DNA from: a virus | Lineage: Duplodnaviria; Heunggongvirae; Uroviricota; Caudoviricetes | IMG/VR virus record: IMGVR_UViG_2671180903_000004 | Location: 1-19,954 of that record | Length of the DNA stretch: 19,954 nucleotides | Direction: 5' to 3' (one strand) | Part shown: one piece after another, positions 4,222 through 4,896 of the stretch | How positions within the stretch are numbered: the stretch's first letter is position 1 | How the letters are laid out: each line of letters begins with the position of its first letter | Translations under genes and position numbers: made by a program | Notes under the pieces: generated by a model | What the model was told of the DNA's origin: nothing | The model's database searches: none | What the model saw: the letters and a program-made list of their open reading frames with translations, nothing else

Positions 4222-4896
4222 TCAGTCTAAGTATTGATGTATTTGTGAAACTTTACCTTTAATGGTGTAACCACCATTCAGTTCGATGGGTTTGTAAAGC
4301 GGATTCAGTGACAACAGATAGATGTTTGGTCCGTCAATCGCAACTTTTTTTAGTGTTACGTTTGGCGTTCCTTCCAATTGGATTAAGATTATTTTTCCCA
4401 CCAGTTCTCTAATGTTACTTGAGCATGGTGTGATCAGCACGGTAGATCCGTCGGGGATGGTTGGGAGGCCGTTAGAGTTTGTCATCGCATCTCCCTCAAC
4501 ATGCAATAAAAAAGAGTTTTCAGCGGTTTTTGTCATGACATCAACCCAATTCTTAATACCAGGAATCTCGGTTACTGGACAACTCATATCCCAATAACCA
4601 GCCTGTTCCCACGTTAAAACGGGCAACCGGGCGATGTTGTCACTAATGTAAGGGTACTGATTCAGACGCAGATCATCGGCTTTATCGTGACCGTCCTTTC
4701 CATAAAGAATCCATTCAGGAGATTTGGAAAGCAATTTTGACAGTAGATACAAATTCTCACCGTCAGGTTTTGAAGAGCCATTTTCCCATTTTGTTACGGA
4801 TACACGAGATATGCCGATTGCTTTCGCAACCTGCTGTTGGGTTAATCCAACGTCTTTTCGACGATTCCGAATACGTTCGCTGATAGTGTTTTTCAT
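4222..4896 (-). CDS. Phage repressor, P22 C2/lambda cI-like (N-terminal HTH_XRE + C-terminal S24 LexA-like domain), with Ser-to-Ala at the nucleophile position (GDAM)
   Basis: N-terminus MKNTISERIRNRRKDVGLTQQQVAKAIGISRVSVTKWENG aligns to recalled P22 C2; C-terminal VEGDAMT...LKKV matches the S24 GDSM...KR pattern except Ala for Ser (codon GCG at 4488..4486, verified). Start at 4896 chosen by homology; track start 4995 is a TTG. Confidence 0.85.
   Translation of the reverse strand: MKNTISERIRNRRKDVGLTQQQVAKAIGISRVSVTKWENGSSKPDGENLYLLSKLLSKSPEWILYGKDGHDKADDLRLNQYPYISDNIARLPVLTWEQAGYWDMSCPVTEIPGIKNWVDVMTKTAENSFLLHVEGDAMTNSNGLPTIPDGSTVLITPCSSNIRELVGKIILIQLEGTPNVTLKKVAIDGPNIYLLSLNPLYKPIELNGGYTIKGKVSQIHQYLD

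Follow-up and report, generated by a model that had tools for sequence, protein, structure and literature searches.

The window analyzed here is a 19,954-bp stretch, the whole of draft contig CXZF01000029.1 (IMG/VR record IMGVR_UViG_2671180903_000004), that appears to hold the early half of a lambdoid prophage, the late half lying beyond the window. Our subject is the immunity repressor encoded on its minus strand, a two-domain protein of the CI/C2 type in which alanine (Ala) occupies the position of the catalytic serine (Ser) of the S24/LexA peptidase family. The gene and the positions on which the argument turns are as follows.

4222..4896, minus strand: CI/C2-type immunity repressor, 224 amino acids, start ATG at 4896, stop TGA at 4224..4222
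4699..4884, minus strand: helix-turn-helix (HTH) domain (HTH_3), residues 9-63, Pfam E-value 3.5e-17
4249..4623, minus strand: Peptidase_S24-like C-terminal domain, residues 92-216, Pfam PF00717, E-value 9.5e-17
4597..4602, minus strand: retained Ala99-Gly100 (GCT GGT), counterpart of the Ala111-Gly112 scissile bond of lambda cI, from the alignment to 3bdn
4486..4488, minus strand: Ala137, codon GCG, in the catalytic Ser column (Ser149 of lambda, Ser119 of LexA), from the alignments
4348..4350, minus strand: Lys183, codon AAA, counterpart of the general base (Lys192 of lambda, Lys156 of LexA), from the alignments

Domain Organization and Predicted Fold of the Repressor

The translated open reading frame at 4222..4896 includes LLHVEGDAMTNSNGLP and VTLKKVAIDG. 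Its Peptidase_S24 match is close to full length, covering positions 1-115 of the 116 in the Pfam model, and its HTH aligns with P22 C2's N-terminal domain (1adr/2r1j) at an E-value of ~1e-12 when searched with phmmer against the PDB. With both domains in place and 36% identity to the C2 proteins of P22 and phage 21, the C2-like identity that a preliminary description had proposed from the letters alone is well founded. In RefSeq, the protein is listed as WP_000103686.1, a 238-residue ‘LexA family protein’ that begins at ATG 4938 and is thus longer by 14 N-terminal amino acids. ATG 4896 is the likelier start, and the RefSeq start is probably wrong, because the 14 additional codons (4897-4938) evolve like non-coding DNA, with a ratio of nonsynonymous to synonymous substitution rates (dN/dS) of ~0.5-1.5 at low dS, and overlap two operators.

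An AlphaFold model of the repressor, built on an alignment of 46 sequences, has a mean predicted local distance difference test score (pLDDT) of 86.9, with disorder confined to the linker at residues 71-85 and values of 87-95 over most of the S24 domain. Foldseek ranks the lambda repressor (3bdn) first among structural matches to this model, with an E-value of 6.5e-11, followed by LexA. The model superimposes on the C-terminal domain of lambda cI (1kca) with a root-mean-square deviation (rmsd) of 1.7 Å, and its HTH on 3jxb with an rmsd of 0.6 Å. The crystal structures of two serine-to-alanine mutants, LexA S119A and Mycobacterium tuberculosis LexA S160A, are also among the matches. The S24 fold, which the preliminary description expected to be kept, is thus recovered by both the Pfam match and the Foldseek matches to lambda cI and LexA, and the domain is predicted, from sequence and model, to be structurally intact and catalytically dead.

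Serine-to-Alanine Substitution in the Catalytic Column

The codon for Ala137, GCG at 4488..4486, lies in the motif VEGDAMT and is a single base away from TCG. Three alignments place this residue in the Ser column. First, phmmer aligned full-length lambda repressor (3bdn) to the protein at an E-value of 4.4e-14; counting residues off the printed alignment, A137 stands opposite Ser149 of EVEGNSMT, the first lysine (Lys) of TLKK stands opposite Lys192 of TFKK, and EQAGYW stands opposite VQAGMF, which holds the Ala111-Gly112 scissile bond. Second, a MAFFT alignment of 21 homologues with lambda cI, P22 C2, and LexA, whose three reference sequences were entered by hand, puts Ala137 in the Ser column. 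Third, Ala137 falls in the same column in a MAFFT alignment of 105 representatives of clusters formed at 50% identity, where the residue is Ser in 89; the Lys183 column is Lys in 97 of these. The remaining 16 representatives carry six Thr, four Ala, and six other residues at the nucleophile position, and most of them have lost the Ala-Gly site as well.

These alignments, together with the structure match, rule out a catalytic Ser elsewhere in the protein. The two central claims of the preliminary description, that Ser had been replaced by Ala through a change of one base and that the Lys of the dyad had survived, are therefore borne out. A detail that it had not mentioned is the retention of the Ala-Gly cleavage site, and the sequence WEQAG is kept in all close alleles. 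Of the traits that mark the S24 family, the fold, the Lys base, and the Ala-Gly bond are present, and the serine of G-x-S-M is absent.

In LexA, the catalytic dyad consists of Ser119 and Lys156 (PMC10020695), and the S119A mutant is auto-cleavage deficient (PMC12211044). Because the same change disables LexA, both RecA*-stimulated and alkaline self-cleavage of the window repressor are predicted, by homology, to be absent.

Immunity Region: Operators and Neighboring Genes

The following features surround the repressor gene.

4897..4958, between the repressor and cro: right operator (OR) region, putative operators
4134..4147: left operator (OL)-type operator GTAACAAGAGTTAC at the head of the leftward operon, with a -35-like hexamer (TTGACT) upstream
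4192..4217, minus strand: hairpin GAACCCGC-ATTCATT-GCGGGTT with a T run after it, just past the repressor stop codon, read by eye
4988..5203, plus strand: divergent cro-type gene (P22_Cro family), Pfam PF14549, E-value 2.9e-16
5200..5625, plus strand: YdaT-family gene in the cII position, Pfam PF06254, E-value 2.8e-10

Two perfect copies of GTAAC-N4-GTTAC lie in the repressor-cro intergenic region (4897-4910 and 4945-4958); between them, a degenerate site read by eye at ~4922-4935 gives a spacing of 24 bp. The window as a whole has four matches to the motif against 0.34 expected. The leftward promoter was assigned by eye, and a consensus promoter scan returned none; similarly, the hairpin at 4192..4217 probably serves the repressor transcript as an intrinsic terminator, although it was not reported by a consensus terminator scan.

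To the right of the repressor, cro is followed by ydaT and then by replication genes. YdaT is a functional equivalent of CII in CP-933P (PMC9986795). The leftward operon comprises DUF1391/ydfA, DicF, dicB, ydfD, and an exonuclease gene. The traits expected of a lambdoid CI-type system are found here, namely a Cro/C1-type HTH, a divergent cro separated by repeated palindromes, and a second operator at the leftward promoter. On this gene content and order, the locus reads as the immunity region of a lambdoid prophage of Qin/Rac flavor.

The OR sequence is nearly invariant across alleles of the repressor that carry either Ala or Ser, down to 66% protein identity and including Salmonella, and alleles of both kinds with shared operators probably form a single immunity group. 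We infer from the purifying selection on the gene (see below) and from the conservation of the operators that the repressor represses the rightward and leftward promoters (PR/PL) and confers immunity.

Distribution in Escherichia coli and Relatives

The repressor gene family is found in 702 of 5426 complete Escherichia coli genomes, at 704 places, so that a second copy exists in only two carriers. By identity to the window allele, 678 carriers fall at ≥99%, 16 at 95-99%, and eight at 80-90%. Roughly every eighth complete E. coli genome thus has the ≥99% allele, among them O111 strains, sequence type 131 (ST131), avian pathogenic E. coli (APEC), and ML35. The codon GCG was read directly in five genomes: the window, E2855, ML35, JJ1887 (ST131, in the 99.6% class), and APEC 102026 (in the 99.1% class). 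At the protein level, all 14 listed members of the 90% cluster have Ala, one of them from Escherichia albertii. These five readings, 14 cluster members, and 678 carriers rule out a sequencing error or private mutation.

A 90-nt probe bearing TCG had no exact match among its 694 matches, a result to be read with the fact that the Ser allele of O55:H7 has four other mismatches to the probe and falls in the same 95-99% probe band as the Ala allele. Counted by allele, the carriers comprise 678 of the Ala type, at most 16 of the O55:H7 type (one read: Ser), and eight of the ST130 type (one read: Ser).

Three carrier prophages were compared in their chromosomal context. They are integrated at yccA (E2855), potC (ML35), and ompW (JJ1887), and differ in their replication and head modules. 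The ML35 prophage looks complete from the integrase through the tail fibers. In contrast, the E2855 prophage has a frameshifted integrase and three copies of the insertion sequence (IS) IS1203, and that of JJ1887 has its tape-measure gene interrupted by ISEcp1-blaCTX-M-15 and its lom gene by ISEc12 (NZ_CP014316.1 1470532-1474808). The chromosomal extended-spectrum beta-lactamase gene of ST131 strain JJ1887 hence lies inside a prophage with an Ala repressor.

The record pNR3838_1 (NZ_AP040233.1, 94.5 kb), deposited as a ‘plasmid’, contains prfA, hemA, prs, and kdsA and, in addition, a portion of the ST131 prophage with its Ala repressor. Its chromosomal housekeeping genes rule it out as an excised replicating phage, and the record has the look of a misassembly or of an excised piece of chromosome.

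A search of 50,697 phage records found no DNA match to the repressor and no protein closer than 43% identity. Two other repressor lineages with GDAM have no close relative among phages either. Judged by these sequence searches, the absence would be in keeping with prophages that are rarely obtained as free phage.

Origin of the Alanine and Selection on the Gene

The sister allele from E. coli O55:H7 CB9615 is 95.8% identical to the window allele in nucleotides and has TCG (Ser) at the catalytic codon. Within the 135-residue C-terminal domain, where nucleotide divergence is 2.7%, the two proteins differ at only two residues, the nucleophile and one other. The ST130-type allele (eight genomes, ~85% nucleotide identity) has TCA, an allele at 66% identity has TCG, and all homologues more distant than the latter in the allele codon comparison have Ser. 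Ala recurs in an E. coli allele of 89% identity (GCG) and in a Salmonella allele of 70% identity (GCA).

A neighbor-joining tree, from which we used only the two clades with 98% bootstrap, the deep bootstraps being unusable through a rooting artefact, pairs the window and O55:H7 alleles at 98% and leaves the other Ala allele outside. At least three changes between Ala and Ser codons are needed on this tree. Strictly independent origins of Ala within E. coli are nonetheless unproven, since a neighboring synonymous site shows the same conflicting pattern and a short conversion tract could replace one mutation: sites 396 and 409, which are 13 nt apart, and sites 72 and 88 share a pattern between the window allele and the Ala allele P0002. 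Independent TCN-to-GCN mutations or short tracts of gene conversion would have brought Ala into at least three backgrounds.

Every copy of the gene that was read is full length. Between the window allele and P0002, both of which have Ala, dN/dS by the Nei-Gojobori method is 0.054 in the C-terminal domain (dS 0.67) and 0.127 in the HTH (dS 0.51). By this measure, the apparently dead peptidase domain is at least as constrained as the DNA-binding domain, as expected if it still provides dimerization and cooperativity. On the allele comparison, Ala has entered several backgrounds while the rest of the C-terminal domain stayed nearly fixed. Because 16 of the 105 related cluster representatives have no Ser, nucleophile-less S24 repressors appear as a recurrent outcome, of which the window allele is a young example.

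A homologue from Arsenophonus nasoniae (P0015, 46% identical) keeps the HTH and the overall length of the S24 domain, but its nucleophile motif has degenerated to PDDKTDN and its Ala-Gly site has been lost (WHDMK), the same type of loss at an older stage.

A Probable Natural Ind- Repressor

In our reading, which we hold with good but not full confidence, the window gene encodes a functional lambdoid immunity repressor that is unable to cleave itself, i.e., a natural Ind- allele. The N-terminal HTH would bind GTAAC-N4-GTTAC at the three sites of OR and at OL, and so silence cro, ydaT, and replication on the right and, on the left, the DicF/dicB/ydfD/exonuclease operon. In lambda repressor, the S24 C-terminal domain gives dimerization and cooperative binding. 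In the window protein, this fold would have been kept while the single-base change from TCG to GCG removed the serine nucleophile. RecA*-stimulated self-cleavage would then fail, and the prophage would not be directly de-repressed by the SOS response, making the allele a naturally fixed equivalent of the laboratory Ind- (S-to-A) repressor. Residual escape might come through rare spontaneous switching, through transfer of the immunity module to other lambdoid phages by recombination, or through an antirepressor that a co-resident prophage supplies in trans.

The allele may be favored because lysogens would persist if DNA damage did not make them lyse. The stronger claim, that loss of Ser is both recurrent and selected in this lineage and that SOS-blind repressors adaptively lock lambdoid prophages, can be put forward only tentatively; on that view, the retained cleavage site might serve an unrecognized trans-acting route of inactivation. 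The Ala allele outnumbers its cleavable sister alleles by ~28 to 1 in complete E. coli genomes, but ST131 and Shiga toxin-producing E. coli (STEC) are so heavily over-sampled that 678 against 24 is no measure of fitness.

Several further observations count against a prophage locked by its repressor. The protein is one residue away from a cleavable repressor, with Lys and Ala-Gly kept, so that the loss could be recent, and the retained Lys and cleavage site could also reflect residual cleavage or cleavage in trans. Absence from phage collections could be a matter of sampling, given that the rare Ser alleles are absent there too. Finally, the allele is nearly identical in distant E. coli lineages and in E. 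albertii, which implies that it spread horizontally not long ago, and such spread is hard to square with a fully locked prophage; its near-identity in unrelated lineages and at different integration sites argues for an immunity module that still moves.

Alternative Explanations

With a natural Ind- repressor in place, the direct RecA route to induction should be closed, by analogy with LexA S119A. Induction could still be tied to SOS indirectly if a LexA-controlled antirepressor, encoded by the same or a co-resident prophage, inactivated the uncleavable repressor. We regard this explanation as unlikely, though it is the strongest of those competing with the natural Ind- reading. Antirepressor control is known for the non-cleavable repressors of Gifsy-1/-3, N15, and 186, and certain antirepressors are able to target non-cognate repressors in trans (PMC3121763, PMC10432266). 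STEC strains are polylysogens, and an antirepressor would explain how an uncleavable allele spreads horizontally. The CB9615 prophage does carry a gene with a ‘phage antirepressor N-terminal domain’ (L020:6787-7356), between lysozyme and Rz-like lysis genes; however, it belongs to the late operon of a prophage with a Ser allele, from where its product could act in trans on other prophages. Among the genes of the 20-kb window, which excludes the late region, no PHROG or Pfam match to an antirepressor was found, and none is annotated in the carrier prophages of ML35 and JJ1887, although small antirepressors are poorly annotated.

Likewise, neither the window nor the prophages of ML35 and JJ1887 yielded a convincing LexA box before a candidate gene. 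The single good LexA-like box, TACTGTAAAAATATCCAGTT at 13852-13871, matches the consensus at 16 of 20 positions and is not placed before a small open reading frame: it lies 8 nt inside the start of a gene for an N6/N4 DNA methyltransferase (13844-14893), downstream of Q. It may reflect SOS control of the methyltransferase or simply a conserved coding sequence. The box recurs unchanged in the prophage of ST131 strain JJ1887 (L021:28888) and as a close variant in ST130 (L012:10773). A perfect CTGT-N8-ACAG at 10934-10949 was also considered and ruled out as a LexA box, having a GC-rich spacer and lying just upstream of parD/parE. This palindrome, CTGTTGACGACAACAG, adjoins a ParE/ParD pair on the minus strand (10321-10620 and 10626-10883) and is probably a toxin-antitoxin operator.

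It is much less probable that the prophage is decaying and already defective, its repressor without any remaining selected function, and that the change from Ser to Ala is a lesion of neutral or slightly harmful effect. The preliminary description had raised a non-inducible, domesticated prophage as one possibility, and in part this stands, since the E2855 and JJ1887 copies are indeed degraded and riddled with IS elements (a frameshifted integrase and IS1203 in the former, ISEcp1-blaCTX-M-15 and ISEc12 in the latter). The ‘dead’ part fares poorly. A dN/dS of 0.05-0.13 across the HTH and C-terminal domain, at a dS of ~0.5-0.7, speaks against decay, as do a gene that is full length in every copy read, operators, cro, and ydaT that are intact and conserved, the complete-looking prophage of ML35, and the presence of Ala in three allele lineages while the rest of the C-terminal domain barely changes.

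Least probable of all, and in our view very improbable, is a repressor that is still cleaved, whether in trans by a co-resident Ser-bearing S24 protein or heterodimer partner or through another nucleophile: Ala99-Gly100 and Lys183 are conserved in all Ala alleles, where older nucleophile-less lineages have usually lost the site, and Ser alleles with the same operators exist, but a homologous Ser partner is normally absent (a second gene copy in two of the 702 carriers), the GDxM turn offers no alternative Ser/Thr except a Thr common to lambda and P22, and retention of the site is equally explained by recent loss, given the 2.7% divergence from the Ser sister. For LexA and cI fragments and for UmuD, cleavage of one molecule by another has been reported.

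Comparison with Known Systems

The natural Ind- repressor and its surroundings share with lambda cI and P22 C2 the two-domain architecture, the divergent cro, a three-site OR at 24-bp spacing, an OL, and the Ala-Gly site and Lys at homologous positions. They differ in the Ala nucleophile, the YdaT-family gene at the cII position, and the Qin-like left operon (DicF, dicB, ydfD). The closest relatives, O55:H7 CB9615 (WP_000104592.1, 94.5% amino-acid identity) and the ST130-type allele (WP_028985609.1, ~88%), have the same operators and gene neighborhood, but they keep Ser (TCG and TCA, respectively) and are rare, with at most 16 and eight genomes against 678 for Ala. Engineered LexA S119A and the Ind- or active-site mutants of lambda cI have the same kind of Ser-to-Ala change, at the same catalytic position in the case of LexA S119A; unlike these, the window change is natural, present in hundreds of genomes, and under purifying selection.

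Similarly to GfoR/GtgR of the Gifsy phages, CB of N15, and CI of 186, the window repressor is predicted not to be inactivated by self-cleavage, in its case from the missing nucleophile. The Gifsy repressors are small (136 amino acids) and lack a cleavage motif (PMC3121763); in the window protein, the S24 domain is whole, and both the Lys and the cleavage site are still there. The Gifsy, N15, and 186 repressors each have an identified LexA-controlled antirepressor, and for the window repressor none was found in the genes covered above. The immunity region also resembles that of PaaR2 (CP-933P, with YdaS/YdaT) in consisting of a repressor, a Cro-like gene, and YdaT. PaaR2 is reported to be unresponsive to mitomycin C on account of lacking the peptidase motif (PMC8630535); the two repressors are not the same, as the window protein keeps a full S24 domain with one dead residue.

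Lastly, ‘grounded’ prophages are proposed to have mutations in attachment sites and recombinases (Ramisetty and Sudhakari 2019, PMC6379469). Such lysogens, unable to enter the lytic cycle, keep immunity and avoid lysis, and the same logic may apply here, except that the lock would sit in the repressor while the rest of the ML35 prophage looks intact. Our literature search found no paper on WP_000103686 or on a natural Ser-to-Ala prophage repressor. Non-cleavable repressors and the logic of ‘grounded’ prophages are already established, and a natural, widespread S-to-A allele is a new instance.

Other Features of the Window

Rfam matches mark four further RNA features.

2661-2712, minus strand: DicF small RNA (sRNA), beside dicB
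9476-9651, plus strand: sok antitoxin RNA, upstream of hok
14943-15189, plus strand: three tRNAs, downstream of the methyltransferase gene
15269-15458, plus strand: sRNA STnc100

Cargo genes are present in the early-right and Q-distal regions, at 8743-9408 and at 15484-15819 on the minus strand: a homologue of QueH (epoxyqueuosine reductase) and a PmrD/IraM-like gene.

Implications for Prophage Induction

Prophage induction in response to DNA damage is a driver of phage spread, of toxin release, and of the death of hosts exposed to antibiotics, and a repressor that cannot be cut makes a prophage deaf to the damage signal. Prophages with the Ala allele are probably disconnected from this usual SOS wake-up signal. 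If so, about one in eight complete E. coli genomes would carry an immunity module that is not directly switched on by ciprofloxacin or mitomycin C, and the carriers predicted to be SOS-blind include ST131 and O111 STEC. Tools that call inducibility from a ‘LexA family/S24’ domain would misclassify the Ala repressor. The near-identical natural alleles with Ala (ML35, ST131, O111) and Ser (O55:H7 CB9615) offer a clean pair for testing selection on SOS inducibility. Were the adaptive lock to prove true, it would matter for exposure to fluoroquinolones and, in JJ1887, for the prophage that carries blaCTX-M-15.

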